51,160 nt of DNA from a virus, in IMG/VR virus record IMGVR_UViG_3300037742_000043, positions 1 through 51,160 of that record; one strand, written 5' to 3'. Every line of letters begins with the position of its first letter. The first letter of the stretch is position 1. A program made the position numbers and the translations under genes. Below the pieces are notes generated by a model. That model did not search any database. It was not told the origin of the DNA and saw only the letters and a program-made list of their open reading frames with translations. Positions 17,094 to 47,965 of this stretch are shown one piece after another.

Positions 17094-17453
17094 TTAGTGG
17101 GCGACGGCGACGGACTTCGACGGACGAGCGGTGATGGTCATTCCTTTATGTTGCTTGCGATGGCAGGAAAGGCAGAGATAAGTGCCGTTGTCAACGGCTA
17201 CAGACTTTGTAGGGTCTGAGTAGACAGGCACTTTATGATGCACATGCTTGCCTCGCTTGTTGCAATCAGGATCGGCACACATGTTGTTGCAGCGGGCACG
17301 GACTTCTTTGAGGAAGGCTTGATATTCTGTTGTTTTAAAAAGAAGGTCGCGAAGCTGATTCCAGATCTTGAAGAAGTCTTCACGATCCAGTCCGCCCCTT
17401 CGTTTCAAATTCACCATCCGATTGATGATCACTGCGGCAGAAAGATCAGGCAT
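17094..17453 (-). CDS. HNH endonuclease, 119 aa
   Basis: CADPDC...HVHHKVP...N...CLSCHRKQH motif set. The ATG at 17453 overlaps the TerL stop by 8 nt. The 254-aa track ORF is an out-of-frame extension into TerL. Confidence 0.8.
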   Translation of the reverse strand: MPDLSAAVIINRMVNLKRRGGLDREDFFKIWNQLRDLLFKTTEYQAFLKEVRARCNNMCADPDCNKRGKHVHHKVPVYSDPTKSVAVDNGTYLCLSCHRKQHKGMTITARPSKSVAVAH

Positions 17454-19056
17454 ATTTGATGGCCGAGTAGCCGGTGGCGATTGATCGAGACCTATTGAAC
17501 TTGTCAAGCGCTTCATCTCGTTGATTGACTTCGACGTCCTTGATTGAGGTGCGCCAGACTTCTGGACCCATAGCCAAAGCATCAAGAGAGTGGATGTCGC
17601 TGCCATAGGGGAATGATCGGTATTGATCGACAATGCTGTCTTTTTGTGAAGAGTGGAACCAGATCTTGCCATTGGCGAACCATTGACGAAGGACCCTGAT
17701 TCGATCTTCTTTCTGCTTCTGCTTCGTCGTGACCATGATGACACGAAAGAATGTGCCGCGCAGTCGCATCTCTCTCTTGAACACATTCTCAAAGAGGCCA
17801 GAGAAGAGAACCTTTTCGCAGACGAAGGCACGTGGATTCCACTTAGCAACAAGGCCAAAGATCATGGAGATGAATGCCTCTGGAACAAGCTTCTCCTGTA
17901 CGACTTGCAGGATGTAGACAACGCCCCATCGGTCTGTACCTGTGACAACAATGCCAGAGAAGCCTGTCATTGCAGGATCAGCTAGGATCAAGATGTCAAG
18001 CTCTCTCGTGTCGATTCGACGAAAGGTTCCGTCAAGCTGTACCGCGGTGATTTCAAATGGTCGATCGTCAACAAATTCAAAATATCTCTCCCACTCCTGA
18101 CTGAACTCCCCTTCCGTCTCCATCGGGTTGTTCATGTACTGAGAATTGAACATCGCGAGATCGTTGGCTTTCATCTCTTCAATATCTTCCCAGCTTGTCG
18201 CCTCGGGCCAGATTAGGTACTTTTGATTCTTTTCATCCCTTTCGTAGATAGACCGTGTGTAGATCTTGAGACGAGTCTTGAAGTCCTCTTTGATGACCGA
18301 ATAGATGTCATCTTTGCGATAGCGAACACCTTCAAAGTCTACATGCGTCGCGTTCATTTGAGTGAACATACCTTTGAGATCGCGGACCCATGTCTTAGCA
18401 GCAGTGAAATCAGCTTCGGACTGCATTGCGTTAAGTCCAACGATGTCATTCACCTTCATCATGTCAAAGTGCTTACCTTGACCTGCGGCGCCACGGCCCA
18501 TGACTGTGAAGGTAGACTCGGGCCATGACTTGGTTCGTGGTAATTCTAAGTTGGTTTGATTTACACGAAGATGCTTACCGGGGACAAGTTCTGGAAACAA
18601 GGCAACAAGAAACTCTTCATCAAAGATCTTCCCAGTGATGGCTTGAAGGTTCTCGCTGGCGGTTGTTTGGACTTCGTGCGCGAGAAGGATGCGGACGTTG
18701 GTGCCAAGATTGCGCGGAAAGGGTTGATTGCCACTGTCGTCAGGCAACGCGATCTGAATACTATCACTAATCGTATTGATCGTTGTCTTGAGAAAGCCGC
18801 GCGGCATGAGGATGAGTCTGAACCTGTCCTCATTCGTCTTACCCATCCATGTGCAGAAGTCACCGTGCAGGGCTGTTGGCCGCCCTTCTTTCGTCCGCAG
18901 TCGATCAAAGCCGAGGACAGTGTCAGACAGAAAAAAGAGATCACACTTAGTTCTTCGACGAAGCAGAGCAACTTCAGTATCCGTCTGACTCTCTCGTACC
19001 TTATCCGCCTTCCTTCTCAGCTCATCTGTGTTGATAATTCGTTCGTCATCACTCAT
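17446..19056 (-). CDS. terL: terminase large subunit, 536 aa
   Basis: Size and TerS-TerL-portal order. N-terminal ATPase-like segment (LILMPRGFLKTT) and an acidic nuclease-like C-terminal half. Confidence 0.8.
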   Translation of the reverse strand: MSDDERIINTDELRRKADKVRESQTDTEVALLRRRTKCDLFFLSDTVLGFDRLRTKEGRPTALHGDFCTWMGKTNEDRFRLILMPRGFLKTTINTISDSIQIALPDDSGNQPFPRNLGTNVRILLAHEVQTTASENLQAITGKIFDEEFLVALFPELVPGKHLRVNQTNLELPRTKSWPESTFTVMGRGAAGQGKHFDMMKVNDIVGLNAMQSEADFTAAKTWVRDLKGMFTQMNATHVDFEGVRYRKDDIYSVIKEDFKTRLKIYTRSIYERDEKNQKYLIWPEATSWEDIEEMKANDLAMFNSQYMNNPMETEGEFSQEWERYFEFVDDRPFEITAVQLDGTFRRIDTRELDILILADPAMTGFSGIVVTGTDRWGVVYILQVVQEKLVPEAFISMIFGLVAKWNPRAFVCEKVLFSGLFENVFKREMRLRGTFFRVIMVTTKQKQKEDRIRVLRQWFANGKIWFHSSQKDSIVDQYRSFPYGSDIHSLDALAMGPEVWRTSIKDVEVNQRDEALDKFNRSRSIATGYSAIKYA

Positions 19057-19403
19057 GAGTGGTGTAGATCGTAAAGGAATCTCATAGTTACATTCAGAGA
19101 ACTTGGATCTAAACTTCCCAGAGTTTTAAGCCAGCACTCGAAGATTCTTGGATCATATATCATACAAGTAGGCTCTAGCATCTTTTGCATCTCTTGTTCA
19201 GCCTTTAGAGCCTTAAAGAGACTACCCACGTATCGAATATACTTGAAAACCAAAACGCCTTCGAGAGTTTGAGATGTGTTGTGATCCCTTAATCGCTTCT
19301 TAGGTCGAGAGGTTATTCCAACATAGTATTCTCCTTGGTTGTTACCTAGAATATACAAGTAGAATCCATCTATCGGCCACTTTCGAAGTTGATCATACTT
19401 CAC
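19053..19403 (-). CDS. GIY-YIG nuclease-domain protein, 116 aa
   Basis: FYLYILGNNQGEYYVGITSRPKKRLRDHN matches the GIY-(10-11)-YVG...R...H/N core. GTGA overlap with the TerS stop and ATGA overlap with the TerL start. Visibly AT-richer than its flanks. Confidence 0.7.
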   Translation of the reverse strand: MKYDQLRKWPIDGFYLYILGNNQGEYYVGITSRPKKRLRDHNTSQTLEGVLVFKYIRYVGSLFKALKAEQEMQKMLEPTCMIYDPRIFECWLKTLGSLDPSSLNVTMRFLYDLHHS

Positions 19404-19966
19404 TTCAACACCTTAATCTTCTCACTCCCATCAACAGATGCACCTGTGACATGTGCGTGCATCTCTTCGACCATTTGTGCACGGCGCAAGCCTTCAGCAA
19501 GCGCATCCCGCTTGGGCTCACTATTGAGAACGTTAAACTGCGTATTGTTCGTGATGTTGATCGTGTTGCCTGCACCGATGTGTTTGTCGGCAGAGACAAG
19601 AGTGTCAAAGGCTTTCATGTTGAGCGGCGCACAGGCGAGAGGGGCCATGGTTTGCAGCTTGTCATCCTGAAGAAAGTCAAGAATGCGCTGCTGAGCCAAG
19701 GCGATTGCCTGCACCCGCTGCTCTGGCATCTGCAATGTCTTCTTCGCCATGATCTCTGCTTCGACCGTGGCGATAATAATCTTAGCCTTACGCGACGTGC
19801 AGATAACCGCAATCGTAGTCTCTGCGTAGTTGTACTTCTCAGCAATCTCTGTGTTGTTCATCCCTTGAATTCTATCCATTACAATTGCTGTGTGGACAGG
19901 CTTCCAGTTTTTGACCATCAAATTGCCGTTACCTTCGCCTTTTTTGCGTCGCGCAAACTCGATCAT
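19400..19966 (-). CDS. putative terminase small subunit (HTH protein), 188 aa
   Basis: Lies upstream of TerL. HTH-like GMNNTEIAEKYNYAETTIAVI. AAGGA RBS. Confidence 0.5.
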   Translation of the reverse strand: MIEFARRKKGEGNGNLMVKNWKPVHTAIVMDRIQGMNNTEIAEKYNYAETTIAVICTSRKAKIIIATVEAEIMAKKTLQMPEQRVQAIALAQQRILDFLQDDKLQTMAPLACAPLNMKAFDTLVSADKHIGAGNTINITNNTQFNVLNSEPKRDALAEGLRRAQMVEEMHAHVTGASVDGSEKIKVLK

Positions 19967-24649: not shown

Positions 24650-25024
24650 TTAGTTAGTTGCTTGGCCGACAATGTAGTATGTCGTATCTTCGAGCACTGG
24701 AGCGGCGGCGACAATGCGAAAGGCGCGTGGGATTACGAGGAAGACGTAGGGTTGAGCGTTGCCAGCGGCGGGCGTTACTTGCTGAACAGCAGGCGGGCCG
24801 CCATCGAAGTACGGAAACCAGTCTGCTGCGTTCGTTACAACGTCAGTATCCTTAAAGTTTCTCCACGCAAGCTGAATGTTCGCTGGAGCTACTTGATTTG
24901 ACGGCGAATAGATGAAAAGACCTGCTGATCCGCCAAACGCTTTCCAATTTCGCACTACGTCTGAGACTGAATTGCCTTCTGTGATCGTGACTTGAAGGGC
25001 AATTGGAGTCGATGAAGTTCCCAT
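24650..25024 (-). CDS. hypothetical structural protein, 124 aa
   Basis: AAGGA RBS, in the late operon. Confidence 0.5.
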   Translation of the reverse strand: MGTSSTPIALQVTITEGNSVSDVVRNWKAFGGSAGLFIYSPSNQVAPANIQLAWRNFKDTDVVTNAADWFPYFDGGPPAVQQVTPAAGNAQPYVFLVIPRAFRIVAAAPVLEDTTYYIVGQATN

Positions 25025-25307: not shown

Positions 25308-25525
25308 GCAGAATGGGCCGGGGCGGGAGGGCTGTTGATGGGGCAACAGAGCAAGAGGGTCGCGCGCGTGAGATTGCCTTGACGATATAGCCCGTAGGGT
25401 AGATTGTCAAGAGTTTTCCACAAGAATTAACAGTGCGCCTGCGGCCTTGGCGATAGCCTATCTACCCAAATAGGTAGAAGTCTAGGCAAAAATATGCAAA
25501 CTAAGGCAACATTGCTGAATTTTTA

Positions 25526-25571
25526 GTGAAAATTTTAGAGCCTTTTTGAAAATTGAGTAAAATTTTAGAGC
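25526..25571. repeat. two copies of AAAATTTTAGAGC spaced 30 nt apart
   Basis: The 13-mer is identical at 25529-25541 and 25559-25571, each preceded by AGT(G). GAAAATTG lies between the copies. Confidence 0.8.
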
Positions 25572-25635
25572 GACTTGGTAATTTATAATCATGTCTAATC
25601 ATTTTCCCTTACCCTCGGGCTTGGCTTTATGCTCT

Positions 25636-25688
25636 TGCGCGTGCGTGTGTGCGCATGATGCGCGTGTGTGTACGTGTGTGCGTGCGCG
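25636..25688. repeat. alternating purine-pyrimidine (GC/GT) tract, 53 nt
   Basis: Perfect R-Y alternation over 25636-25657 and 25658-25688, with one phase slip. Confidence 0.85.
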
Positions 25689-25845
25689 ATTCATCTGTGC
25701 GCGAGTGGTGAATGAGCAATATTCGTAATCATTCCTTAATCTGTTCGTTACAATTGGGTAGTTGACACCCTATTGCGTCTACCTAGATTGATCGTCACTA
25801 GGCTGTGCGGCACCAATGCCGAGATTATCTTTAGGGAGGGACACC

Positions 25846-25983
25846 ATGTACATCATCACTGAAACAAACGGAACTGTGAACTATTGCTCGCTTGCTGAGT
25901 GGCGAGAATTGGATGTATGCGCAATCATGCGTGACTGTTTGTCTGTCGATTCCGTCGTCTACTGTTCTGAGATTGGGGAATGA
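25846..25983 (+). CDS. hypothetical small protein, 45 aa
   Basis: Read by hand (below the track cutoff). GGGAGGG RBS and ATGA coupling to the next ORF. Confidence 0.45.
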   Translation: MYIITETNGTVNYCSLAEWRELDVCAIMRDCLSVDSVVYCSEIGE

Positions 25984-26195
25984 GGTATCACGTTCAGCCG
26001 CAAGTAATCGGCAAGCGTGCGTCAGTCTTTGAGTCTGACGATAAAGAGGCGACGATTCTCTTTATTACCTCATATGGTGATTGCACCGTGTGGGAAGATG
26101 GCAAGCAATGTTTGATAAATCACACAAATAACCTCGGAGTGTTCTACTTCCGTGGTGAGACAACGCTATTTGAAGGTTGCGAGGTGCAAGCATGA
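25980..26195 (+). CDS. hypothetical protein, 71 aa
   Basis: Track ORF, coupled on both sides. Confidence 0.55.
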   Translation: MRYHVQPQVIGKRASVFESDDKEATILFITSYGDCTVWEDGKQCLINHTNNLGVFYFRGETTLFEGCEVQA

Positions 26196-26266
26196 TCTTA
26201 GTACTAGTAATCTCGCTGCTACTCGGCGTAGTCTTTGGCTTTATTTGGAGTCAAAAGGATGAATAA
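26192..26266 (+). CDS. possible 24-aa hydrophobic peptide
   Basis: ATGA coupling. MILVLVISLLLGVVFGFIW... Read by hand. Confidence 0.25.
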   Translation: MILVLVISLLLGVVFGFIWSQKDE

Positions 26267-26372
26267 GATAGAGGATACAGAGGATTGCGCCGACGAATCT
26301 TTCCCGACTTTGTTCCTTATGGCCATGCTTGAGGATCAATTGGCGGCATTTGTCGATACTGAAGCGGAATAA
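26259..26372 (+). CDS. possible acidic 37-aa protein
   Basis: Overlaps the previous stop. Read by hand. Confidence 0.25.
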   Translation: MNKIEDTEDCADESFPTLFLMAMLEDQLAAFVDTEAE

Positions 26373-26489
26373 TCAGCCAGATCAGCTTTTCAACTGCATC
26401 GAGGCGACTTTTTGATTTTGTAGAAGATAGGGGCATTTTCGCCTAAAAACACCTGAAAGTACTAGGATTTCACCTGATTTTGTCCAAAA

Positions 26490-26726
26490 CTACTCCCCAT
26501 TACTACCCAACCAATCCCCCCCTCTCACCTAGGAACATACAGTAGGTTATGATACGTCGCTTCTCATAGGTCTGTGGTTGTGTGTGTTCCTTTAGTCCCC
26601 CCCCCATTTCTCTACCTACGGTAAGAACACACAAACCAACCACAAGCAACAACGAGACATGACGCATGTTATCCTACTGCTAGTTGCTAGGTGAGGAGGG
26701 GACCTCGTTTGCCTAGTAGTAGGGAG
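26490..26726. repeat. long imperfect inverted repeat / hairpin with a C9 apex
   Basis: Nested perfect helices: 26524-32/26687-95 (9 bp), 26540-46/26673-79 (7), 26555-58/26661-64 (4), 26574-80/26637-43 (7), 26581-89/26625-33 (9). C9 run at 26597-26605. Confidence 0.8.
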
Positions 26727-26818
26727 CATTCTCGCGCATTCCCCCCGCACTTTCAGGCATTTTGCTAGTACTCTCGCGCGATTCTGTCCCCAATTCCCAT
26801 CATCCCAAAAATCACCTC

Positions 26819-26846
26819 TTGACACATTTGTTTTTTGTCTTATGAT
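26819..26846 (+). promoter_or_regulatory. sigma70-type promoter
   Basis: TTGACA (26819-24), 16-nt spacer, TATGAT (26841-46), about 55 nt upstream of the 26902 ORF. Confidence 0.6.
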
Positions 26847-26901
26847 GTTGCATCAGTATATCAACAGTATCGGAGTTTCATAATCCATCAGAGAGGCTGT
26901 T

Positions 26902-27216
26902 ATGAGGAAGAACACACAGGAAGTGATGAAAGCATGGCGGAATGGTGATGCTAAGCGTTCATGTGAGGCAATTTGGACGGATGGCGAGGATGTTTTCTCA
27001 TACTGGACATGCCTACTAACGACAGCAGAGAACGGAAGATTAGTGTTTAACGCCACAAGCTACAGCCCTACAACCAGCAGGCAGCAAAGTGGAATGTTGT
27101 TATTCTTGCGTGACAATGGTAGTGAAGTCTTTTCGACTTACAACCATGATAGGGGCGCTTCACCATATTCATTAGTAAAGGCGTATGAAGCTGTTACGAA
27201 AAAGGGAGATGAGTAG
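26902..27216 (+). CDS. hypothetical protein, 104 aa
   Basis: GAGAGG RBS. First ORF after the promoter. Confidence 0.65.
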   Translation: MRKNTQEVMKAWRNGDAKRSCEAIWTDGEDVFSYWTCLLTTAENGRLVFNATSYSPTTSRQQSGMLLFLRDNGSEVFSTYNHDRGASPYSLVKAYEAVTKKGDE

Positions 27217-27334
27217 TCTGTAGGGTAGATTGCTCCCGGCAGTCATTCTATTGACTGGCCAGCGCTCGAAGCGTAAGGGAGCCCTTGGTTGTTGATCGTT
27301 ATTCCATGCAGTCCTACACTCACGGGAGATAGAT

Positions 27335-31876: not shown

Positions 31877-32212
31877 ATGACCCCACTATCAAGTATCAGA
31901 CTCCTGATCGGCCTAGACCTCAATCAAAAAGGTCTCCCTTCATCAATCATCACGCCAATCCTCACCATTCTCAAGCTGGCCGACGAAGAAATGACCGAAG
32001 TTGGCTTTGACTTTGAAGATCCGCAGATTCACTTGGCTGTTGAGGAGCTTGAAAAGGCCATTGCAGAGATGAACGGCGTTGAACCTGCATACATTATCGA
32101 AGGAACGGAAACAGCACGAAGTTATGGTTTGAGTAACATTAGTGAGATTGAAACTTCCCTTAACAACAATCCCGACCCTCTCTCCTACCTTGACGATGAT
32201 GATGGAAACTAA
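31877..32212 (+). CDS. hypothetical acidic protein (start uncertain), up to 111 aa
   Basis: Track ORF. An alternative ATG lies at 31991. Confidence 0.45.
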   Translation: MTPLSSIRLLIGLDLNQKGLPSSIITPILTILKLADEEMTEVGFDFEDPQIHLAVEELEKAIAEMNGVEPAYIIEGTETARSYGLSNISEIETSLNNNPDPLSYLDDDDGN

Positions 32213-32213
32213 G

Positions 32214-32501
32214 ATGAGTGATGATGCGATGATAAGTGAGGCGAAACGCGACAAGGTTCGCGACGCGATTGCAGAGGCGCTTGGACAGAGCGCATACATG
32301 CGCATCACCGACCTGTTTTGTCAGTGGCGCTTCGAACGCAAGCACGACCGGACGCAACGTGCACGGAAGGCGGACCGTAAGCGCCGTCTGGACCGGATGG
32401 CCGCGCTTGAGGATGAATTGCGCGACCTCGAATGCGCGGAAGCCGCGGCGCTCGCATTCGAAACGAAACAACCCGTCACCCTCACCCGGAGCCCGCAATG
32501 A
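32214..32501 (+). CDS. hypothetical basic protein, 95 aa
   Basis: Start moved to ATG 32214. First gene of the GC-rich island. Confidence 0.55.
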   Translation: MSDDAMISEAKRDKVRDAIAEALGQSAYMRITDLFCQWRFERKHDRTQRARKADRKRRLDRMAALEDELRDLECAEAAALAFETKQPVTLTRSPQ

Positions 32502-32923
32502 GCGCCGTCTATTGCATCGTGCGCGTGAGTGATGGTGAAGTGGTAGGCGCGAGTGCTCAGGGCTACGCGGACGCGATCAACGATGCAGGTGCGAGAATGG
32601 TCAATCTGATCGCAGCTCGACACGCTATTGCGTTGCAACCCGACCCATCACGTGACTGGAATGGTTTTGAACATGACGGCTACCGCCTCGAAACCCGCCC
32701 CACGCCAGCGCTGCCCGCGGTGAGTAAGGCGATGGTGGAAGCGGCGGCGCGTGTGTTGTGTGACTGTCTCGCCAAAGACAAACACTTACGGAATGCAATG
32801 GGCGAGCCTCTCGTCGCGCAATATGATGAATATGGTGATTCTGGTCAGGTCGTTATGCGCCATTACGCCCACATCATTCTTACAGCCGCCCTCAACGCGT
32901 GCGGCGATCGGGGGGAAGGATGA
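32498..32923 (+). CDS. hypothetical protein, 141 aa
   Basis: ATGA coupling. In the GC-rich island. Confidence 0.6.
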   Translation: MSAVYCIVRVSDGEVVGASAQGYADAINDAGARMVNLIAARHAIALQPDPSRDWNGFEHDGYRLETRPTPALPAVSKAMVEAAARVLCDCLAKDKHLRNAMGEPLVAQYDEYGDSGQVVMRHYAHIILTAALNACGDRGEG

Positions 32924-33429
32924 GCCTTTACCCGATGTGCCCGAATTGCGGATCAACGAACATCGCGACAGAACGCCGGATGAACGGCAATCATTCGTGC
33001 GCCGCATGTCGTCACGTGTGGCCGAACATGAAACCAACAGAACCCGCCCCGCCAACCGAGGCGCTGGTTGCTGAAGGGCGGAAGTTGGTGGAGTACGATA
33101 TTGACATCAAACAACGTAGCGCACAGAACGCGCGCGACACGCAGAACGATGGACCCTTTGTCGATAGGGACTTGAAAAGGCGTGTCGCCGAGTCGCTGGA
33201 TAAAGACGCCGAAGCACTTTGCGCTTTCCTCGACAAAGCCGAACGCGACGCCAACACCCTCGCCACGTTGCGCCAGCAGATCGAGGGGTTGGCGCGGTTG
33301 AGTGTTGAGCACTACGTCCAGCGCGCCGACTTCGGCGGCCCTGCATTCTCAACGACACGAGAGAAACCGAGCGCGAATGGCAAATATCTCGACCGCGCCG
33401 AAGTGCTGGCGACGTTGGGAGGGGCATGA
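32920..33429 (+). CDS. zinc-ribbon protein, 169 aa
   Basis: ATGA coupling and GGGGAAGG RBS. N-terminal CPNCG...CAACRH. Confidence 0.6.
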   Translation: MSLYPMCPNCGSTNIATERRMNGNHSCAACRHVWPNMKPTEPAPPTEALVAEGRKLVEYDIDIKQRSAQNARDTQNDGPFVDRDLKRRVAESLDKDAEALCAFLDKAERDANTLATLRQQIEGLARLSVEHYVQRADFGGPAFSTTREKPSANGKYLDRAEVLATLGGA

Positions 33430-33680
33430 TGGGTAAAGCGCTAACACTCCGCGAGAAACTGGAACGGCTCTCGATCCCTCGCGGATGGGGGTTGAAACTG
33501 GCGCGCGATGTTGCAAAGACATGCCCGTTCTGCCAGCGCCAACCAGTCATTCAGTATTGGCACGCTGGCGGACCGAACAAAGTGTTGGTCGGTTGCGAGA
33601 ACGACAATTGCGCGGCGGAACCATCGGTAACAGGCGAATCTACTTTTGAGGGCGTGAAGAAATGGAACAAAAGAACATGA
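33426..33680 (+). CDS. Lar-family (restriction alleviation)-like protein, 84 aa
   Basis: CPFC-x23-C-x4-C ... KKWNKRT matches the Lar family pattern (CPFCG ... C..C ... WN.R). Confidence 0.55.
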   Translation: MMGKALTLREKLERLSIPRGWGLKLARDVAKTCPFCQRQPVIQYWHAGGPNKVLVGCENDNCAAEPSVTGESTFEGVKKWNKRT

Positions 33681-34330
33681 CTAACCCGACTCCGAGCGAG
33701 GGGGTGCTGTACTTCCTCGACTGGAACGAACCAGTTAGCTATTCGCGCAAGGATGACGGGACTATCCTTCGTAATTGCGAGGAAGATAACTGGCCTGGCG
33801 GTATCGGCGAAGATCAGCCGAACGGTGTGTTTCTTGTGTTTGTTGGGACAATCCACCAGAACACAGATGACTGGACAGAAGAGCAATGCGAAGCAGCGGA
33901 GATCTCGATCGAAGCGATGAAGTACAGCGCGTGGTGGGATGGAGACTTTCGCGAAGCAACGGACGAAGAGATCGCCGACGTGTTCTGTCCCCAACTCCGC
34001 GCCCGCTTGGCGACGTGTGAAGGGGAAAAGAACGCCGCGTACGCGGAACGGAATCGCGTTGTTGCGTGGGCCGCGTTGCTGTCGCATCAACTTGGCGACG
34101 TGGTGCGCGTGACGAAAACGGTTATCGAAGGCTGGGACCCCGCTTGGCACAACTGCGTCTTTGTCGAAACGCCAAACGGCCAAGCGTCGTGGCACTTCCA
34201 CGACACCGAATCCCATCTCTTTTTCGGCCTTACACACATGCCGCATGTGTGGGATGGACACAGTACAGAAGAGAAGTACGCCCGGCTTCAAAACCTCATG
34301 CTTACTCGCCCACTATCAAAAAAATCATGA
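33677..34330 (+). CDS. WDGH-domain-like protein, 217 aa
   Basis: ATGA coupling at 33677. C-terminal ERNRVVAWAA...GQASWHFHD...WDGHSTEEKYARL. Confidence 0.5.
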   Translation: MTNPTPSEGVLYFLDWNEPVSYSRKDDGTILRNCEEDNWPGGIGEDQPNGVFLVFVGTIHQNTDDWTEEQCEAAEISIEAMKYSAWWDGDFREATDEEIADVFCPQLRARLATCEGEKNAAYAERNRVVAWAALLSHQLGDVVRVTKTVIEGWDPAWHNCVFVETPNGQASWHFHDTESHLFFGLTHMPHVWDGHSTEEKYARLQNLMLTRPLSKKS

Positions 34331-39506: not shown

Positions 39507-39694
39507 TCGACAACCTTCTATCCCTAAAGGACCGACTCAGCAGAATCCAATGGCCGAACGATACAACAACCATCAGCCTTGCCATTGACATAGAAGGAGA
39601 CTTTCGATACTGTCTCGACTCTATCCGCTCTGTCCGCGACGACGAGACAAATCAAGTCGAAGTGATCTTGAAGATTAAACGGAGAGAAGCATGA
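39503..39694 (+). CDS. hypothetical protein, 63 aa
   Basis: ATGA coupling at 39503. Confidence 0.5.
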   Translation: MIDNLLSLKDRLSRIQWPNDTTTISLAIDIEGDFRYCLDSIRSVRDDETNQVEVILKIKRREA

Positions 39695-39855
39695 CCTTAC
39701 GAGAATTCCAATCCCAACTTGAACGGTGGATCATGTCGCAAGAAGATCCAGAAGCTGTTCGTGATTACGAAATTATTTGGGCGGATTTTGGCGGCGTTCG
39801 TAATGTTGACTTCCGCACAGATCATGAAACACAGACAATCATTATGGCAGACTAA
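39691..39855 (+). CDS. MTL-family small protein, paralog 4, 54 aa
   Basis: Read by hand. ATGA coupling. MTLREFQSQLERWI... Confidence 0.5.
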   Translation: MTLREFQSQLERWIMSQEDPEAVRDYEIIWADFGGVRNVDFRTDHETQTIIMAD

Positions 39856-39857
39856 TC

Positions 39858-40034
39858 ATGACACTCCTCGAATTCCAAGCCATGATCAACGAGTATGTAA
39901 AGAAGCATCCGGAGCATCATCATATTGAAGTCGAAGATCAAGAAGGGCAGCCTCCAGACTCACTTGTCCTCACAAAGGCCATGATAACTACTGACACACA
40001 AGTTCCATATCCTGCATACTTGACTCTGCGATGA
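39858..40034 (+). CDS. MTL-family small protein, paralog 5, 58 aa
   Basis: Read by hand. MTLLEFQAMINEYVKKHPE... ATGA coupling to the next gene. Confidence 0.5.
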   Translation: MTLLEFQAMINEYVKKHPEHHHIEVEDQEGQPPDSLVLTKAMITTDTQVPYPAYLTLR

Positions 40035-40933
40035 AACTAAGCCAACTCAAACTATCCGAAGCCATTATCATGATGGTGTATGCGGAGCCGAAGATCGGGA
40101 AGAGTCATTTTGCAGCAACAGCAGCGGAGACAGACAGGATTGTTATCATCACCGACCTCAACGGTATCGAAACATACGCTGGCGCAGCGATCCGCAAGCA
40201 GTTTCCCAAGCTCGATGAGAACAACATTGAAGTAGAAATCATCACAAGGGATGGCAGTCTTAGTCAAGCCAAAGCATTCCAACAAATCAACGATGTCCTT
40301 CGCGAATACTTCGAACAGAAGCTCGACAAGTTCGACACGATTGTTATTGATGACAGCAGCTTCGTCAAGAATCAGGCCCGCAACCTAGCAATCAAGATCA
40401 ACGGCACATCTGGCCGCTCTTCCACCTACGACAAGGCCCTGAAGGACAACAAACCATCCTTCAACAACATCTCAGTCCTAGAAGAATCAGACTTCGGTCG
40501 TGAGATGGAGATGGTAGCGAACTTCTTCGAAGAACTGACCTCCATGTGCCGCAAGCATGGAAAGAACCTTATCGTCTGTGCCCACGAAGCACAAATCTAT
40601 ATCAAAAAGAAGAACGATAAGGGTAAGGATGTTCCTACTCTAGATCGTCGCACCGCAGCATTCACAGGCAAGAAGGAACCAACAGCTACATCTCGATACT
40701 TTTCGATTGTTGCAAGGCTCACAGCCAAGGGCAAAGAAGCATCTCGCCAAATCGTCTTCCAATGTAAAGCCGACGACATCGTAGACGCTGGCGATCGTTT
40801 CGGAGTCCTGAACACTTACGAATACAATCTCACATGGAGGCAACTTAAGGAGAAGGTCGCAGCACAAGTCGCAGCAGTAGAGCCAGTTCGAATCAAGAAA
40901 GAAGAATCACCCACACCATCCACTCAAGCATAA
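40031..40933 (+). CDS. RecA-fold ATPase, Sak4/AAA_24-like, 300 aa
   Basis: Walker A AEPKIGKS, Walker B TIVIDDSS. Followed by a DUF669-like gene, as is usual for Sak4 modules. Confidence 0.7.
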   Translation: MKLSQLKLSEAIIMMVYAEPKIGKSHFAATAAETDRIVIITDLNGIETYAGAAIRKQFPKLDENNIEVEIITRDGSLSQAKAFQQINDVLREYFEQKLDKFDTIVIDDSSFVKNQARNLAIKINGTSGRSSTYDKALKDNKPSFNNISVLEESDFGREMEMVANFFEELTSMCRKHGKNLIVCAHEAQIYIKKKNDKGKDVPTLDRRTAAFTGKKEPTATSRYFSIVARLTAKGKEASRQIVFQCKADDIVDAGDRFGVLNTYEYNLTWRQLKEKVAAQVAAVEPVRIKKEESPTPSTQA

Positions 40934-40944
40934 CCAAACTACTC

Positions 40945-41475
40945 ATGGCAATTTTCAATCCATCCGCTTCAAAGTTCGACACAACATTCTTTGTCTGCCC
41001 AGAAGGCACGCATCGCTTTAAGATTCAAGGCTTCAAGATGCGACTCGGCAAATGGGGCACAGGTAAGATGCTCTTTATTGACGTAAGCACTCGGATCGAA
41101 GGTGGCGGCGCAGATCTTGATGGCAAGATGGTCACTATCAGTCAACAACTGGGCAACACTGATCCAGACAACGATCGCTTGCCACTGGACGAAACTGGCG
41201 CACCGATCTACGACTTCAAAACCATCGCCACAATCGCCCACGCCGCACTTGGCTATGGCAATAACGACAAAGCCGAAGACAAACGCTTTGAACAGCAGGA
41301 ATCAGACTTCATGTCCTCATTATCCTTTGATGATGAGACACTTGAACTGCCCGGCGCAGGTTGGGAACGTCTCAAAGACTGTTCCTTCAAGGCCACCGTC
41401 GTCCGCAACGCAGACAGGAAAGACCCGAACAAGATCTACGCCCGATTCAACTACATCTCACCAGTGAATGGTTAA
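40945..41475 (+). CDS. DUF669-like protein (putative ssDNA binding), 176 aa
   Basis: Position after the Sak4-like ATPase and a weak N-terminal pattern. Acidic C-terminal part. Confidence 0.4.
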   Translation: MAIFNPSASKFDTTFFVCPEGTHRFKIQGFKMRLGKWGTGKMLFIDVSTRIEGGGADLDGKMVTISQQLGNTDPDNDRLPLDETGAPIYDFKTIATIAHAALGYGNNDKAEDKRFEQQESDFMSSLSFDDETLELPGAGWERLKDCSFKATVVRNADRKDPNKIYARFNYISPVNG

Positions 41476-41483
41476 GATGTAAA

Positions 41484-41711
41484 AAAGGGCTCTCACATAA
41501 CACATCGTGAAACCTTCAAGTCTTTCGTCACTAGTCATGACAAACAAGAAAGATGACGTAACCACATGTTCCCTGTTATGAACCTCAACTGGCGTTTGGC
41601 ACATGGTTGAAGGCACCCATGAGGGTTTCCTGTATGTTCTCCGCCGATTAGGTAAAAGGCGCATGATTTCCGCTTCGCAGCAGCGCCTCCAGTTGAGGGA
41701 GAGAGCCCTTT
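41484..41711 (+). ncRNA. structured element with a three-way junction (class unknown)
   Basis: P1 41484-94/41701-11 (11 bp), P3 41496-502/41574-80 (7 bp), P2 41583-92/41689-98 (10 bp), all perfect, with linkers of 1, 2 and 2 nt. No ORF. Confidence 0.6.
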
Positions 41712-41871
41712 GTTGTTCATTAATGTACCAAAGTCAATCCCGAGTCATCCAAGGTAAATGACAGACGGAGAGATGGCCTTCTTATCTAGTTACTGCCGCT
41801 CAGACTGACGGTATGGAGTTATCATACTAGGTCTGCAATATTGTGGGATTAAACCAGATAGATAAGATGAA

Positions 41872-41952
41872 TGTGCGGCTTTGATGGAAAAGGCAATGAG
41901 AGATTAATCATCTCGAATGCGTAAACTGCGGGTTCGACTCCCGCCCGCACAG
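41872..41952 (+). tRNA. tRNA-like element (class II Leu(UAA)-like layout, non-canonical anticodon arm)
   Basis: 7-bp acceptor TGTGCGG/CCGCACA, T arm GCGGG-TTCGACT-CCCGC, 3-bp D stem with a GG loop, 13-nt variable region. The anticodon stem has a G-A mismatch and position 37 is U. Confidence 0.4.
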
Positions 41953-41987
41953 CTTTGCACCACAACTTTCACTTCATTACTACAACT

Positions 41988-42221
41988 ATGATTCACGACG
42001 GAAACGTATTCAATCGAGTCAACGACATTTGCGACGGACTTAAAGCCAAGATCGAACGAAAGATCAAGCCTCTCACATGGACTTATCACTCAGATCGAGA
42101 GGAGTTCTTTATCTCCTACGACGGCAGATTGCTTAGAGTTATTAAGTACAAAAATCTACTTAGTGAAACCGCAGTGGAACGAGAAATTAACTCTTTATAC
42201 CAAGACTTTCTCGACCGATGA
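41988..42221 (+). CDS. hypothetical protein, 77 aa
   Basis: Trimmed to ATG 41988. The track start (TTG 41955) abuts the tRNA-like element. Confidence 0.5.
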   Translation: MIHDGNVFNRVNDICDGLKAKIERKIKPLTWTYHSDREEFFISYDGRLLRVIKYKNLLSETAVEREINSLYQDFLDR

Positions 42222-42247
42222 ACTACAACCCTTCACTATTCACAAGG
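42218..42247 (+). pseudogene. degenerate duplicate of the 5' end of the 42449 gene
   Basis: ATGAACTACAACC is identical at 42218 and 42449, with similarity continuing about 15 nt further. The ATG overlaps the upstream stop (ATGA). Confidence 0.5.
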
Positions 42248-42254
42248 AGAAAGA

Positions 42255-42452
42255 ATGCAGGAAAAGGTTGCTGTTAGTTGTTTGATTTTTGGATTCGCTT
42301 GTTTGATCTTGGCCGTATCCTATGCAATAGGCACAGAAACATACTGCGCAGATCTAGCAGAAAGGCGTGCGAGATGGGGAGGAAGATTTGTATTATCTTC
42401 TCCGGTACTTTTCGTACTTGGCTTCTTACTGCTAACTTGGCAAGCAGAATGA
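42255..42452 (+). CDS. small membrane protein (2 predicted TM), 65 aa
   Basis: AAGGAGAAAG RBS, two hydrophobic segments. Confidence 0.6.
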   Translation: MQEKVAVSCLIFGFACLILAVSYAIGTETYCADLAERRARWGGRFVLSSPVLFVLGFLLLTWQAE

Positions 42453-42652
42453 ACTACAACCTCCCCACTTTCAAACACCCCACCATCACCACAAACATTC
42501 AATCCATCCTCCATGAGCATCTCCCGACAGAACATAACAGTCTCCTTGGGGAGATTGAGGCGATCACCGGACGACTTGCCGACCTTACAGCGGCGAAAGA
42601 GTACCTTGAAAAAGTTGCGGAAGCATGTGAGATACGCATTACTGTTGATTGA
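42449..42652 (+). CDS. hypothetical protein, 67 aa
   Basis: ATGA coupling at 42449. Confidence 0.55.
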   Translation: MNYNLPTFKHPTITTNIQSILHEHLPTEHNSLLGEIEAITGRLADLTAAKEYLEKVAEACEIRITVD

Positions 42653-42794
42653 CGAAGAAGATAAAACACAGTTCGTCAAAACCTATCTTCGCAAGCCAGC
42701 AATGGAGCAAGAATATCGAGAGATGAAGAACAATGGTACATCACATCTCAAACGCGCCAAAATCGAGATCGTTATCACGAAGGTGTATCCATGA
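42645..42794 (+). CDS. possible small protein (start uncertain)
   Basis: TTG at 42645 overlapping the upstream stop, or ATG at 42702. Fills the gap and is ATGA-coupled downstream. Confidence 0.3.
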   Translation: MIDEEDKTQFVKTYLRKPAMEQEYREMKNNGTSHLKRAKIEIVITKVYP

Positions 42795-42970
42795 TTAAGC
42801 TTCAAGGCTATGCTTATGCTTTCATAGCAGAGAAGCTTGAAGGCGGTGACGTAGATATATATAAAGACGATGACTCTGAAATGGGCGTTATAATTAGAGC
42901 TGATCAACTAGACAAGCTCATCGCCTTTCTTCAAAAAGTTCAAGAAGAAAACAAGAAGGAGAATCTGTGA
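42791..42970 (+). CDS. hypothetical protein, 59 aa (paralog of the next ORF)
   Basis: Read by hand. C-terminus LDKLIAFLQKVQEENKKE. Confidence 0.45.
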   Translation: MIKLQGYAYAFIAEKLEGGDVDIYKDDDSEMGVIIRADQLDKLIAFLQKVQEENKKENL

Positions 42971-43155
42971 ATACAATCATAGGTGAGTTGTTATGTACAA
43001 GAGAAGATGAAGAGGGCTTCGCACACATCGCTGACTGGAACTCTGGCTCAGAAGTTTGGATACCAAAACAGCACATCGAAGCCGTCATCACCTTCCTAAC
43101 CAAAGTCAAAGAGGAGAACGAGCGTTCTCTTAGCAGTACCAACAATCAACCATAA
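42967..43155 (+). CDS. hypothetical protein, 62 aa (paralog of the previous ORF)
   Basis: GTGA overlap. C-terminus IEAVITFLTKVKEENERS. Confidence 0.5.
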   Translation: MNTIIGELLCTREDEEGFAHIADWNSGSEVWIPKQHIEAVITFLTKVKEENERSLSSTNNQP

Positions 43156-43165
43156 GGAACCAATC

Positions 43166-43570
43166 ATGCCCATCACCAACGAAGACATCATGAAGAAGCT
43201 CGAAGAGATTCAGGCATCTGTAAAGCAAGTTAACGAATCAGTTATGACTTACTTGCTTGACGAAACAGTCACGTCTTCTCAACCTTTCGCAGTTACGCCA
43301 GTCGGGTCGATTAGTGAAATCGAAAGGTGGATTAAAGAAGAAAAGGCTTCTCAGGATCTGCCTGCCAACAACACTCCACCTGTCCCGCCTGAATTCCAAG
43401 TTGGCAAGCTTGTCTATCTCGCCCATGATCCAGAGAAGCGCCAAGTTCCAATCACGCAAATCGGTGACGGTATTGTCCATATCGACCTAACCGACGACCT
43501 AAAGTCCTTCATCAACAACCCTGACCATGGCGGATGGTTCTATCCCAGCAGCCTTATTCTTGTCAACTAA
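43166..43570 (+). CDS. hypothetical protein, 134 aa
   Basis: Track ORF. Confidence 0.6.
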   Translation: MPITNEDIMKKLEEIQASVKQVNESVMTYLLDETVTSSQPFAVTPVGSISEIERWIKEEKASQDLPANNTPPVPPEFQVGKLVYLAHDPEKRQVPITQIGDGIVHIDLTDDLKSFINNPDHGGWFYPSSLILVN

Positions 43571-43573
43571 TCC

Positions 43574-43978
43574 ATGCCACTATTCCCAATCGGAAAGCAA
43601 GTCCTAGTTCAGCTCATCCCTGTTTCATCCATGTTCACCGCCAACATCCATCGACCTGATACATTAACCAAGCAAAGCAATCAAGGAATCGTCAAAGCAA
43701 TAGGTCCAGATGTCGAGCACGTTCAAATCGGCTGGTATATCTGCTTCGAAGAGATGCGCGGATTGAATGTCGAAGACAAACATGGCAAGTACCATCTGGT
43801 CAACGAAGACGATGTAGAGTGTCGGATCGAGATTGAGCCGGAGATTATTCCCGGCCTTTGGCACATGGACGAACAAGGAGATCGCTTCGAAGCAACAACT
43901 GACTCCATCTTCTCCTGCATCATCGCGCATTTCGAATCGAAGCCAAGGATCGTACAATCAGTCAAGGAGAGTCGATGA
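43574..43978 (+). CDS. GroES/Cpn10-like co-chaperonin with a C-terminal extension, 134 aa
   Basis: PIGKQVLVQ..., QGIVKAIGPDV, VQIGWYICFEE...YHLVNEDDVECRIE parallels the GroES pattern (P..drVLV, G.V.AVG, v.vGD.V.f..y....e.dil..i). Confidence 0.5.
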   Translation: MPLFPIGKQVLVQLIPVSSMFTANIHRPDTLTKQSNQGIVKAIGPDVEHVQIGWYICFEEMRGLNVEDKHGKYHLVNEDDVECRIEIEPEIIPGLWHMDEQGDRFEATTDSIFSCIIAHFESKPRIVQSVKESR

Positions 43979-44139
43979 GGAAGATCACACAGATCGCAGT
44001 CAGTCCTGACACCAAAGCCACATTCCCCTGTCTCTACGCAGTCTGTGATGACGGCACAGTTTGGTTCATGAACCTTGAACGATCGCGAGGCGTGTGGGAA
44101 AGAGAGGAGCCAATCCCTCAAGACAAGGAGAGTCAATGA
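43975..44139 (+). CDS. hypothetical protein, 54 aa
   Basis: Read by hand. ATGA coupling at both ends. Confidence 0.45.
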   Translation: MRKITQIAVSPDTKATFPCLYAVCDDGTVWFMNLERSRGVWEREEPIPQDKESQ

Positions 44140-44300
44140 GAATAGTTCAATCTCTATTCGATGATCTCTCCCTATTTCCAGCAGCGAAGAGAGATGTGAT
44201 TATCGCGCAAGACAACAAAAAAGATAACATTTTGTTGCAATTTGAGCACATAGATGATCTCATTGCTGCGTTGCAAGAGTTCAAAAGGATAAGATCATGA
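44136..44300 (+). CDS. hypothetical protein, 54 aa
   Basis: Start at internal ATG 44136, coupled. Confidence 0.45.
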   Translation: MRIVQSLFDDLSLFPAAKRDVIIAQDNKKDNILLQFEHIDDLIAALQEFKRIRS

Positions 44301-44515
44301 TCCACTTCATTAACTACAAACTCACTTACGACTATCACGGGAAGATTGGCATATCGGCAGACAGCAGTGCAGAGGCAGAGGAGATTGTCAAGCTTATGAA
44401 AGTCACAGAGTTGCGCGAACTCTCATCTGAATCCGAACACCGTGTCACCGCCAAAGCCGACCGCCCTGTTGATCTGCGCCAACTCACCTTGTTCGAGGAC
44501 GAGACAAGTCCATGA
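44297..44515 (+). CDS. hypothetical protein, 72 aa
   Basis: ATGA coupling. Confidence 0.55.
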   Translation: MIHFINYKLTYDYHGKIGISADSSAEAEEIVKLMKVTELRELSSESEHRVTAKADRPVDLRQLTLFEDETSP

Positions 44516-46008
44516 CAGATCCAAGGATTCCCGGTGTACCAAAGGCAGATTGGGAGCCAATTCAAAACAGCTACAACCTCCTCCTCAATCTTCCCGACTT
44601 CCAACTAAGAGCCCTTGCGCAGATTTATCTCAACACACCTGCCAAGGCAACTCTATGGCTTTCTTATTCAGACGCGTATCGCATCACCCTTGTTTCATAC
44701 TATCATCCCAACAGTCCCTCGTCTGTCTACCTGCCATACCTCTACGACTACGCACTCTGCGTACTCAATGGAATCACACCGGAGAATCCGATGAATTTTA
44801 GCGACCTTAATATCTATTTTCTCAATGACCCGCAGTATGGCGGTGCAGCGGAATACCAATCCCCTACTGCACTTGGCACAGACAACTATCCAGCACTTGC
44901 CGCAATCCTCAATGCAATAGAAGACACCGGAAAAGGCGGCGTCATCATGATCCCCCCATCTCCATACGGCTACTACTTCTCTACCTTCCCCAACATTCGC
45001 CTCGATTACACAAAGATCATGGGCTTCGGCATTGGTGCCACGCGCATTGTCTACGAGCCTGAAGATCCCGGCGAGAACGCGGCGTTTAAATTCTACTCGT
45101 CCGGCGCGACAACTCTTGTCGGATGTGAGATCGGCAACTTCACTCTCGAAGGATTCAACCCCGATCTCCTCTCCCTTTCCGCCAAGAACAATCGCCATAA
45201 AAAGATCGGCATCCTAACCGAATGTGTCTCGCACCTCACCATTCATCCGATTCAGATCAAACTATGGAACACTGGCTCCGCAGTCTATGGCGTAGAGGGC
45301 GGTAGTGAAGGCATTACCTCGCGCGGCAAAGAATTCATCCGCGTCGTCAATCCATACATCATCGCCGACCGACCACTTGTATTCGAAGCCAACACCCGCG
45401 AACCATCCTCCTTCGACGTTGACGAATACAATATTTCAGACTTCGACTTTCGTATGCCTATCGCCCCAGACAAATACGCAGACGAGGCCGCCATCACATT
45501 CGTCGGTGACCTCGATGTACATGAATTAAAAACCACAGGCAAATCCAACATCGCAGGTGGCAGTGGGAATGTATACTGGAACAATAGCGCAGGCACTCAT
45601 GCGTGCAACAATGTGACCTTCAGTGGATGGCGAGCGGAGCAACAGAGCGGTGCTATGAAGAATATTGATCTACGCTTCAACGTCCCTAACCCACTCTTCG
45701 GTCTAGTGATCGACGACGTAACAATGAGTCGCGAAACAGCCGGAATCTATCTCGACGGGTGCCGCGCAAAGATCAGCAATTCATTCTATCCACGATTCGC
45801 AGATCAAGACGCAGGACTTCTTGGGATCGAAATCGGCCCACTCGCTGCCGAGTCTAGCGAAACAATCATTGACAACTTTCTCCTCCCCGACACCAACACA
45901 GTTGACTCAGCCATTCTCTACGACTGGGGCACCAAGACAGTCCAATTTACCACCGCAGATGAACAAACCGGATTCAATCAACTCGCGAGTCGGATGACGA
46001 TTCGATGA
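44512..46008 (+). CDS. pectate-lyase-superfamily beta-helix protein (putative depolymerase/tailspike), 498 aa
   Basis: YPALAAILNAIEDTGKGGVIMIPPSPYGYYFS matches the Pectate_lyase_3 N-terminal signature (d.t.Aiq.Ai....gG.v..P.G.Y). Beta-helix-like rungs follow. Confidence 0.6.
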   Translation: MTDPRIPGVPKADWEPIQNSYNLLLNLPDFQLRALAQIYLNTPAKATLWLSYSDAYRITLVSYYHPNSPSSVYLPYLYDYALCVLNGITPENPMNFSDLNIYFLNDPQYGGAAEYQSPTALGTDNYPALAAILNAIEDTGKGGVIMIPPSPYGYYFSTFPNIRLDYTKIMGFGIGATRIVYEPEDPGENAAFKFYSSGATTLVGCEIGNFTLEGFNPDLLSLSAKNNRHKKIGILTECVSHLTIHPIQIKLWNTGSAVYGVEGGSEGITSRGKEFIRVVNPYIIADRPLVFEANTREPSSFDVDEYNISDFDFRMPIAPDKYADEAAITFVGDLDVHELKTTGKSNIAGGSGNVYWNNSAGTHACNNVTFSGWRAEQQSGAMKNIDLRFNVPNPLFGLVIDDVTMSRETAGIYLDGCRAKISNSFYPRFADQDAGLLGIEIGPLAAESSETIIDNFLLPDTNTVDSAILYDWGTKTVQFTTADEQTGFNQLASRMTIR

Positions 46009-46173
46009 TCATGCTGTAACCATCATTGCAATCTGGTCGGCGCAGTTCGGTCCCCAAGCCAATCTCTGTCTTCTCACTACGATCTTGCCCGACGCCAGAC
46101 CGGCCCGCTTCTGGGCCGGGGCTGCGCGGTTGCAGTTTGCTCCCCTATCCCAACCACCAATAAGGAAAAGGTT

Positions 46174-47962: not shown

Positions 47963-47965
47963 ATC

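Follow-up and report, generated by a model that had tools for sequence, protein, structure and literature searches.

A long palindrome in the early region of an uncultivated tailed phage and its relatives, a candidate origin of replication

The stretch of DNA considered here (the window) is the 51,160-nucleotide (nt) IMG/VR virus record IMGVR_UViG_3300037742_000043, and its source is an uncultivated tailed phage. A 234-nt imperfect palindrome occupies positions 26493-26726, between two early transcription units. This palindrome appears to be a cis-acting element of the early region. Its most likely function, judged from sequence comparison and with a chance that is about even, is that of a replication origin of the type in which iterons and inverted iterons flank an AT-rich center. 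Palindromes were also found in the early regions of at least 14 distant relatives. The position and the form of the element are conserved across the family and its primary sequence is not. The copy in the window is a divergent version, which keeps the arm complementarity, the C/G tracts, and the promoter and is without an AT-rich center or clear iterons.

Palindrome of the Window

The palindrome of the window is real and far above chance. Inverted repeats were scored with an einverted-type scoring of our own, and the same scoring was used for the relatives. With a score of 87, the palindrome is the top inverted repeat of the 51-kb window; the runner-up scored 44, and in 25 dinucleotide shuffles of the complete window the best scores were 37-51. 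A gapped palindrome alignment gave 75 Watson-Crick pairs around a 30-nt asymmetric apex. The non-paired positions are 3 G.T and 8 A.C (11 transitions), 13 transversion mismatches, and 6 gaps. Folding z-scores for 26480-26740 were -6.2 (plus strand) and -8.2 (minus strand) with RNA parameters, and -5.1 and -6.4, respectively, with DNA parameters.

The features of the palindrome and of its surroundings are collected in Table 1. An earlier sequence-only reading had drawn the outer limit at 26490/26726, which agrees with the gapped alignment, and a weaker outer pairing extends to 26446 and 26775. That reading had also described five nested perfect helices. Their coordinates are real by script, and the fourth is 8 bp long instead of the 7 bp given. 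The same script check found the C9, C7, and C6 runs and the recurring short motifs where they had been placed. CCTGAAAGT (26452) and ACTTTCAGG (26749) each occur a single time in the whole window, GCATTTT is present at 26433 and 26757, and GTACTAG at 26459 has its counterpart CTAGTAC at 26765. As for iteron-like short repeats, the window has only TCACCT (four copies, one inverted) and TCCCCCC (three copies, all direct). The region 26373-26901 holds all four of the C7 7-mers in the window and 7 of its 11 C6 6-mers. The region had been called free of open reading frames (ORFs), and this is correct for the plus strand, which has no ORF of at least 30 amino acids (aa) between 26373 and 26834. The minus strand does contain two mechanical ORFs, 26503-26667 (54 aa) and 26616-26825 (69 aa), and no similarity to either was found in any relative.

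Table 1. Coordinates of the palindrome, of its parts and neighbors in the window, and of the palindromes in relatives (positions for relatives are those of the respective locus)
Feature	Position	Strand	Details
Left arm	26493-26592		100 nt; gapped palindrome alignment
Asymmetric apex with C9 run	26593-26622		30 nt, 43% AT
Right arm	26623-26726		104 nt; gapped palindrome alignment
Outer left extension	26446-26465		AAAACACCTGAAAGT pairs with 26749-26763; GAAAGTACTAG pairs with 26765-26775
Outer right extension	26749-26775		Partner of 26446-26465
Perfect helix	26524-26532 / 26687-26695		9 bp; CTCACCTAG
Perfect helix	26540-26546 / 26673-26679		7 bp
Perfect helices, several	26555-26558 / 26661-26664 (example)		4 bp
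Perfect helix	26573-26580 / 26637-26644		8 bp
Perfect helix	26581-26589 / 26625-26633		9 bp
C9 run	26597-26605		In apex
C7 tract	26516-26522	+	Left arm; faces GGGG at 26698-26701; one of three TCCCCCC motifs in direct orientation
C6 tract	26741-26746	+	Just beyond right arm; TTCCCCCCGCACTTTC
First early unit, 5' of palindrome	25762-26372	+	Promoter TTGACA-16-TAGATT (25762-25789); ORFs 25816-25983, 25980-26195, 26235-26372
Sigma-70-type promoter TTGACA-16-TATGAT	26819-26846	+	Begins 93 nt past palindrome; next early genes downstream
First gene past palindrome	26902-27216	+	104 aa, no known domain; detected relatives only in loci L017 and L025
DUF3987 AAA+ helicase, putative trans-acting partner (candidate)	49508-50812	+	Pfam DUF3987; PHROG 'DNA primase'
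Palindrome of L001	3454-3670		Score 87
Palindrome of L004	3184-3444		Score 93
Palindrome of L008	1729-1975		Score 140
Palindrome of L009	6409-6737		Score 160
Palindrome of L010	4280-4532		Score 107
Palindrome of L013	5576-5798		Score 63
Palindrome of L014	861-1040		Score 77
Palindrome of L025	3613-3883		Score 74
Palindrome of L032	6506-6707		Score 81
Palindrome of L036	6061-6239		Score 78
Palindrome of L039	6374-6543		Score 83
Palindrome of L041	7546-7815		Score 100
Palindrome of L050	6120-6482		Score 129
Palindrome of L051	7715-7942		Score 96

The two gene modules of the window diverge from a point about 1.1 kb to the left of the palindrome. The minus-strand genes, from 25346 down to 64, are structural and include a large terminase (17446-19056), an SU10-type portal, and a capsid protein. 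The plus-strand genes, from 25816 on, are early and replication genes, among them those for a PD-(D/E)XK nuclease, a Sak4-like annealase, a family-A polymerase, and a DUF3987 protein. The near-consensus promoter that had been noted past the palindrome matches the consensus at 11 of 12 positions. The palindrome was also considered as an intrinsic terminator, and this was ruled out. No such terminator or terminator-like site was found between 26229 and 27227, and the sequence that follows the right arm, GCATTCTCGCGC, has no T run.

Palindromes in Relatives

Relatives were reached by way of the terminase. The contigs of metagenomic homologues were obtained by exact look-up and by terminase-alignment scans of IMG/VR and the JGI metagenomes, and the loci that reach far enough upstream, up to about 21 kb long, were scanned for palindromes. 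A search of IMG/VR for relatives by way of the 104-aa gene and a 148-aa gene found none. In 14 distinct relatives, with terminase identities of 36-73%, the top inverted repeat of the locus is a palindrome of 170-363 nt with a score between 63 and 160. These palindromes sit in the early region near the divergence point. In the five relatives in which it could be mapped, the homologue of the window gene 24650-25024 is 1.0-1.5 kb from the palindrome, as it is in the window. One to three genes take the place of the three small ORFs that precede the palindrome of the window.

The sequence-only reading had proposed a comparison with homologous regions. The form and the position of the arms are kept in the 14 relatives and the sequence is not. 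When the window region was aligned with its syntenic counterparts in L001 and L004, no meaningful conservation emerged, so covariation can be assessed base by base only in two subgroups of relatives that can be aligned.

In L032, a tRNA-Leu gene (6731-6806) is found directly upstream of the palindrome. At the same spot, L036, L039, L013, and L014 carry a GGTTCRAWTCC sequence that resembles a T-arm, together with an acceptor-like end, and ARAGORN made no tRNA call there. A TTGACA promoter precedes the T-arm-like sequence in L036 and L039.

Anatomy of the Element

In most of the relatives, the outer arms are made up of short units at a spacing of 9-10 bp, and these units are inverted on the opposite arm. 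The units are TTTCCCATGG and CCATGGGAAA in L008-L010, ATTCCAA in L041, CCATCC in L032, L036, L039, and L014, AGGTCCAA in L051, and GGCAGGAAT in L050. Opposed iterons can be seen on either side of the center, such as TGGGAA (5-9 copies) in L008-L010 and TTGGAA in L041. Periodicity at a lag of 9-10 was significant (p<=0.007) in the arms of L004, L008-L010, L032, L041, L050, and L051, and was not significant in those of L001. The repeat cores are present in 4-7 copies inside the palindrome in L008-L010, L041, L050, and L051, and in only 1-2 copies in L014, L032, L036, and L039. Outside the palindrome, few copies (0-8 per locus) were found for most motifs.

Inward of the repeats are G/C-rich stretches, which are often homopolymers. 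Examples are G7 in L004, C9 and G6G6 in L032, C7/G7 in L050, C6/G6 in L051, and G7 in L014; the window has C7 and C9. In 10 of the 14 relatives, no 30-mer of the entire locus exceeds the AT content of the richest one at the center of the palindrome (87-100% AT). In L001 and L041 the AT content of the center is close to the locus maximum, and L025 is an exception alongside the window. Across the relatives, the richest 30-mer of the center ranges from 80 to 100% AT. These centers consist of tandem repeats or (TA)n tracts.

The flanks of the element are also similar. An intrinsic terminator is located just upstream of the palindrome in L004, L008, L010, L025, and L051. A promoter with a perfect TTGACA, directed toward the early genes, follows 13-211 nt downstream in the window and in L001, L008, L010, L013, L014, L032, L039, and L051.

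The pattern TGGGAA-N4-TGGGAA-N4-TGGGAA was also looked for in IMG/VR, where it mostly matched unrelated elements that have iteron arrays of their own. The matches in the unrelated viral contigs L055, L082, L084/L075, L091, and L105 are tandem arrays, often by AT-rich DNA and near contig ends. Thus, 10-bp iterons of the TGGGAA/TTCCCA type are common.

A Possible Replication Origin

An origin of replication was one of three roles that had been offered for the palindrome, and it is the one that the comparative evidence favors: a conserved position and form, and, in most relatives, inverted iterons around an AT-rich center. The design of the family would be two inverted arrays of helically phased repeats, a G/C-rich stretch inward of each, and a center that is easily melted. 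An initiator that binds the origin, plausibly the MCM-like DUF3987 helicase of the phage acting through its C-terminal domain, would bind both arms in opposed orientation, open the center, and load two helicase rings, and bidirectional replication would follow. Since it lies in the spacer between the upstream transcription unit and a strong outward promoter, the palindrome would be shielded from read-through. It would also be exposed to the negative supercoiling behind RNA polymerase. When single-stranded, each arm could fold into a hairpin of about 100 bp. The origin function, the identity of the binding protein, and the role of supercoiling are what we infer from these arrangements. In the lineage of the window, either the formation of the arm hairpins is itself selected or the recognition sites are not simple repeats.

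The DUF3987 protein is plausibly the initiator that acts at the palindrome. An AlphaFold2 model built with 13 homologues had a mean predicted local distance difference test (pLDDT) score of 81. In the PDB, the folds that match it best are those of MCM helicases from archaea and eukaryotes (E=4e-8, query-normalized template modeling score (TM-score) of 0.40-0.45). The C-terminus of the model consists of three helices followed by a beta-hairpin and looks like a winged-helix-like domain. This C-terminal part is the least conserved stretch in the alignment of the homologues. A sequence search of the helicase and of a neighboring 498-aa protein against the PDB gave nothing useful.

The closest prokaryotic precedent for the geometry of the sites in the relatives is the origin (ori) of the staphylococcal pathogenicity islands (SaPIs). 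The SaPI ori contains six to twelve short iterons with a core of 5-6 nt, in two opposed sets that flank an AT-rich center (PMC9371898). The Rep protein is a self-loading AAA+ helicase, either of superfamily 3 (SF3) or MCM-like (SF6), and its C-terminal winged helix reads the iterons (PMC9371898). The palindromes of the relatives have the same opposed-iteron geometry around an AT-rich center, and among the proteins of the window is the MCM-like DUF3987 protein, with a C-terminus predicted to be winged-helix-like. There are differences as well. The SaPI ori is found directly after the rep gene, whereas the helicase gene here is 23 kb away. The complementarity of the arms here continues past the repeats for about 100 bp and takes in G/C homopolymers, and the copy of the window is without an AT-rich center or clear iterons.

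A similar arrangement is known from more distant systems. In the core origins of herpes simplex virus 1 (HSV-1; oriL and oriS), SV40, and papillomaviruses, the sites for the initiator-helicase are in dyad symmetry around an A+T-rich center, and both arms serve for the assembly of the helicase. HSV oriL is itself palindromic over a long stretch, and once it has been unwound its arms can fold into intrastrand hairpins. The viral origins measure 45-144 bp, against 170-360 bp for the palindromes described here; the hosts and the proteins differ, and the origin function is putative here. In the archaeal oriC, opposed origin-recognition boxes bracket an AT-rich unwinding element, and the helicase is of the MCM type. 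This is like the opposed repeats around an AT-rich center in the relatives and the MCM-like helicase of the window. However, no Orc1/Cdc6 homologue was found in the window, and the promoters here are of the bacterial sigma-70 type.

The classical iteron origins (lambda ori, P1 oriR, RK2, and pSC101) also have phased repeats, an AT-rich region, and an adjoining promoter. They differ in possessing DnaA boxes and an adjacent rep gene, neither of which was found at the palindrome. A classical DnaA-dependent iteron origin was therefore ruled out, as there is no DnaA box in 26373-26901 and no initiator match in the flanking genes (Pfam and PHROG). Long imperfect hairpins also precede early genes or priming sites in the F plasmid (Frpo), in N4 (hairpin promoters), and in M13 (minus-strand origin). 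These signals have -35/-10-like elements or stems of 5-7 bp within the hairpin, whereas no promoter-like site was found on either strand inside 26446-26775.

Several observations weigh against an origin at the palindrome. The cumulative GC skew of the window turns at about 12.5 and 33.5 kb and not at 26.5 kb. DnaA boxes are not enriched, and no match to TTATCCACA with one mismatch or fewer is present in 26373-26901. In the arms of the window, the periodicity of repeats is not significant (p=0.15 and 0.22), and the richest 30-mer of its center is 63% AT, with 5.5% of the 30-mers in the window being richer. The fold match of the helicase is modest in its TM-score, and its gene is remote from the palindrome. 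No recognizable initiator gene stands beside the palindrome, since Pfam and PHROG searches of the flanking genes in the window and eight relatives gave no DNA-binding or initiator domain. Phased repeats can also be found in packaging sites, ejection signals, and operator arrays. Finally, the divergent junction at 25490-25600 is more AT-rich, contains direct repeats, and is an alternative origin candidate in the window.

The divergent junction has several features of its own. Two direct copies of G(T)(G/A)AAATTTTAGAGC are found at 25526-25572, in a stretch that is 77.5% AT in 40-nt windows (the maximum of the window is 80%). These repeats are a candidate for an alternative origin or for an UP-element. 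A motif, TTTATAATCA-N10-ATTTTCCC(C/T)TACCCT, is located at 25572-25615 in the window, at 4560-4586 in L001, and at 4304-4330 in L004; it is thus conserved between the window and its two closest relatives, although the surrounding DNA cannot be aligned. A longer form, GACTTGGTAATTTATAATCATG, is common to the window and L001. This motif is a candidate for a conserved promoter that includes the transcript start, or for a signal in packaging or at a terminus. Just past it, at 25637-25689, there is an alternating purine-pyrimidine tract of about 50 nt, GCGCGTGCGTGTGTGCGCATGATGCGCGTGTGTGTACGTGTGTGCGTGCGCG, which is prone to form Z-DNA. A similar tract, rich in CGCG/CACA, is found in the same place in L001 (about 4440-4530).

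Alternative Explanations

It is possible, at a low probability, that the palindrome is a cis element linked to a genome end. It could be a pause or first-step transfer barrier in DNA ejection, a hairpin for concatemer processing, or a pac site, and it would mark the inner border of a short segment that enters first with the first one to three early genes. The order of the elements is suited to this: a sigma-70 promoter, one to three small genes, in some cases a terminator, the repeat-rich palindrome, and the next sigma-70 promoter. Distant relatives of the terminase are found in podoviruses that infect filamentous cyanobacteria (Cyanophage PP, Pf-WMP3, and A-4L), and these phages have short terminal repeats. 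In addition, the contigs L005 and L065 end exactly in the (TA)n center of a palindrome of this type. However, the breaking of contigs at (TA)n palindromes is an expected assembly artefact. The window assembles as a circle, and the contig starts of the relatives are scattered. The palindrome is also about 6.5 kb from the candidate small-terminase ORFs, which are just upstream of the large-terminase gene (window 19053-19966), and none of these roles needs an AT-rich center with opposed flanking repeats.

The injection stop signal (iss) of phage T5 is the known example nearest to such a role. Like the palindrome region, it is untranslated, is dense in repeats, inverted repeats, and palindromes, and immediately follows the few genes that are expressed first. 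Eight DnaA boxes define the T5 iss, which lies within a 10-kb terminal repeat (bioRxiv 10.1101/866236). DnaA boxes, the conserved feature of the signal (10.1101/866236), are absent from the palindrome region, and a T5-type injection stop signal was ruled out on this criterion.

L005 is a contig of 49,062 nt, near the full genome length, and the part in question is its end (1-200); in L065 it is the contig start (1-110). Each of the two retains one iteron arm. The ends may be physical, or the assembly may have broken at a palindrome of low complexity. They also brought up the target site of a protelomerase (telRL, N15-like, with a hairpin telomere). This was ruled out for the window, where the apex is 30 nt long and asymmetric, and none of the 42 window ORFs that were scanned had a Pfam match to a protelomerase or tyrosine recombinase.

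It is likewise rather unlikely that the palindrome is a control region for the promoter at 26819, either as an array of sites for an early regulator or as a supercoil-sensitive cruciform or insulator that times the second early unit. The palindrome does end 13-25 nt before the -35 hexamer in L001, L008, L010, and L051 (93 nt in the window), and the repeats are helically phased. A cruciform-type switch had been suggested before. It would fit the AT-rich, near-perfect centers such as those of L008-L010, and the palindrome does adjoin a strong promoter in the window and eight relatives. In the window itself, the center is asymmetric and not AT-rich, so the extrusion of a cruciform from duplex DNA is unlikely there. 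Furthermore, 8-12 sites over 200-330 bp, centered on the most meltable DNA of the genome, far exceed what the operator of a promoter needs, and the distance between palindrome and promoter varies from 13 to 211 nt. Most of the motifs have few further copies elsewhere in the sequenced parts of the genomes, unlike the operator of a regulon. In L008 and L010, moreover, a small dyad belongs to the promoter itself, 20-50 nt past the palindrome. This dyad, TGACAG-N8-CTGTCA, is conserved in both, spans the -35 hexamer and the spacer, and looks like an operator.

A structured RNA is improbable. Such an RNA could be a very long hairpin in the 3' untranslated region or the leader of an early transcript, with a part in RNase III processing or stability, or it could be an antisense or non-coding RNA from the minus strand. 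There is no intrinsic terminator between the upstream ORFs of the window and the palindrome, so a read-through RNA would fold (-91.9 kcal/mol, with the plus-strand RNA z-score given above), and the minus strand folds better still (-116.9 kcal/mol). The minus strand folds better because of the excess of A.C in the arms of the window (8 A.C vs 3 G.T). L008 and L041 are biased in the opposite way, and the strand that folds better differs from relative to relative. Pooled over the 15 palindromes, the arm mismatches were 54 G.T, 60 A.C, and 185 transversions. Strand-neutral mismatches, together with a favored strand that flips, point to a DNA element rather than an RNA.

Other observations agree with this. 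The covariance-model check against Rfam that had been proposed gave no match at the gathering thresholds and none at E<=1. Five relatives have a terminator immediately 5' of the palindrome, and no promoter on the opposite strand was found at the palindrome in the window or in any relative locus. Centers of 87-100% AT and tandem repeats are also unlike an RNA. The earlier suggestion of a long structured or antisense RNA is not borne out by these results. Both arms change together in the two subgroups that can be aligned, with double changes at 9 of 54 pairs in one and 7 of 79 in the other. The pairing is also lost at many positions, and the covariation term of the consensus fold is unfavorable (+2.5 and +7.7). 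The joint changes fit protein sites that co-evolve on both arms and are weak evidence for base pairing itself. The absence of Rfam matches, the upstream terminators, the lack of antisense promoters, and the tandem or (TA)n centers suggest an element of double-stranded or strand-symmetric DNA. Thus, the sequence evidence argues for a DNA element and against a strand-specific RNA.

Selfish or neutral DNA, such as a miniature inverted-repeat transposable element (MITE), the remnant of an insertion sequence, or a functionless palindrome kept by slippage, is very improbable: the size and the hairpin form are MITE-like, but there is a single copy in the window, the pattern of both arms had no match in 185,579 species genomes and the apex sequence none in IMG/VR, and the same map position in 14 relatives holds palindromes of unrelated sequence with a common architecture, so that an element derived from a MITE or insertion sequence was ruled out.

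Other Features of the Phage Genome

The first 127 nt of the window are the same as its last 127 nt. The window is thus a complete circular assembly, and the circle is about 51,033 bp. The independent Logan assembly SRR12681888 (51,063 nt; locus L106) is identical over 39508-51063, has the same first base, and has an overlap of 30 nt. The cut point common to both assemblies is within a hairpin, GCCCGA...TCGGGC, at the convergent junction of the gene modules. This could be a branch point of the assembly graph or a real end.

The phage has no close cultured relatives by the searches that were made. Neither the terminase nor the portal identified a cultured phage closer than 24-26% identity, and positions 26000-27300 had no DNA similarity to any of 50,697 phage records. 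The 104-aa protein encoded past the palindrome matched only itself among 5.8 billion proteins. A scan of the window for tRNA and tmRNA genes found none.

Several other genes were noted. The family-A DNA polymerase is split into two parts (46325-47962 and 48676-49542), which are separated by about 700 nt that contain small ORFs. An N-terminal uracil-DNA-glycosylase-like domain and the 3'-5' exonuclease are in the first part. Directly upstream of the large-terminase gene is an ORF of the GIY-YIG (T5orf172-like) homing-endonuclease type (19053-19403, minus strand), and an HNH ORF is found beside the terminase in the relative L003, where the window has the GIY-YIG ORF. A GC-rich island at 32000-34000 (56-57% vs 48% overall) encodes a TFIIB-type zinc ribbon protein (32899-33429). 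A Cpn10/GroES homologue is present at 43574-43978.

Implications

Opposed iterons around an AT-rich center that are used by a self-loading AAA+ helicase are already known. What is new is the phage family, the very long arm complementarity, the runs of G/C homopolymers, and the iteron-poor version of the window. A broader proposal can be made tentatively, although we consider it doubtful on balance. A family of phages of about 50 kb would use a long palindromic origin, with inverted repeat arrays, G/C homopolymer 'clamps', and a (TA)n-type center, that is opened by a virus-encoded MCM-like helicase in the form of two opposed rings. This would be the style of eukaryotic viruses and archaea in a sigma-70-dependent phage. 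In lineages like that of the window, arm hairpins of about 100 bp would replace the iterons and the AT-rich center as the selected feature. A bolder variant would have the same module also halt the entry of DNA after the tiny pre-early operon.

Very few uncultivated phages have a known replication origin. If the palindrome is not an origin, it would still be a conserved cis site at the border of the first and second early transcription units. If it is one, a palindrome scan alone would locate the origin across a phage family of about 50 kb that has no cultured member, because no other inverted repeat of the sequenced locus scores higher and AT content usually peaks at the palindrome. The widespread domain of unknown function DUF3987 would then be tied to an initiator-helicase that is MCM-like, loads itself, and has a defined DNA target. 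The family would also represent a natural series of origins with differing repeats, including hairpin-only copies like that of the window, and this series could be used to test how such a helicase recognizes its origin.

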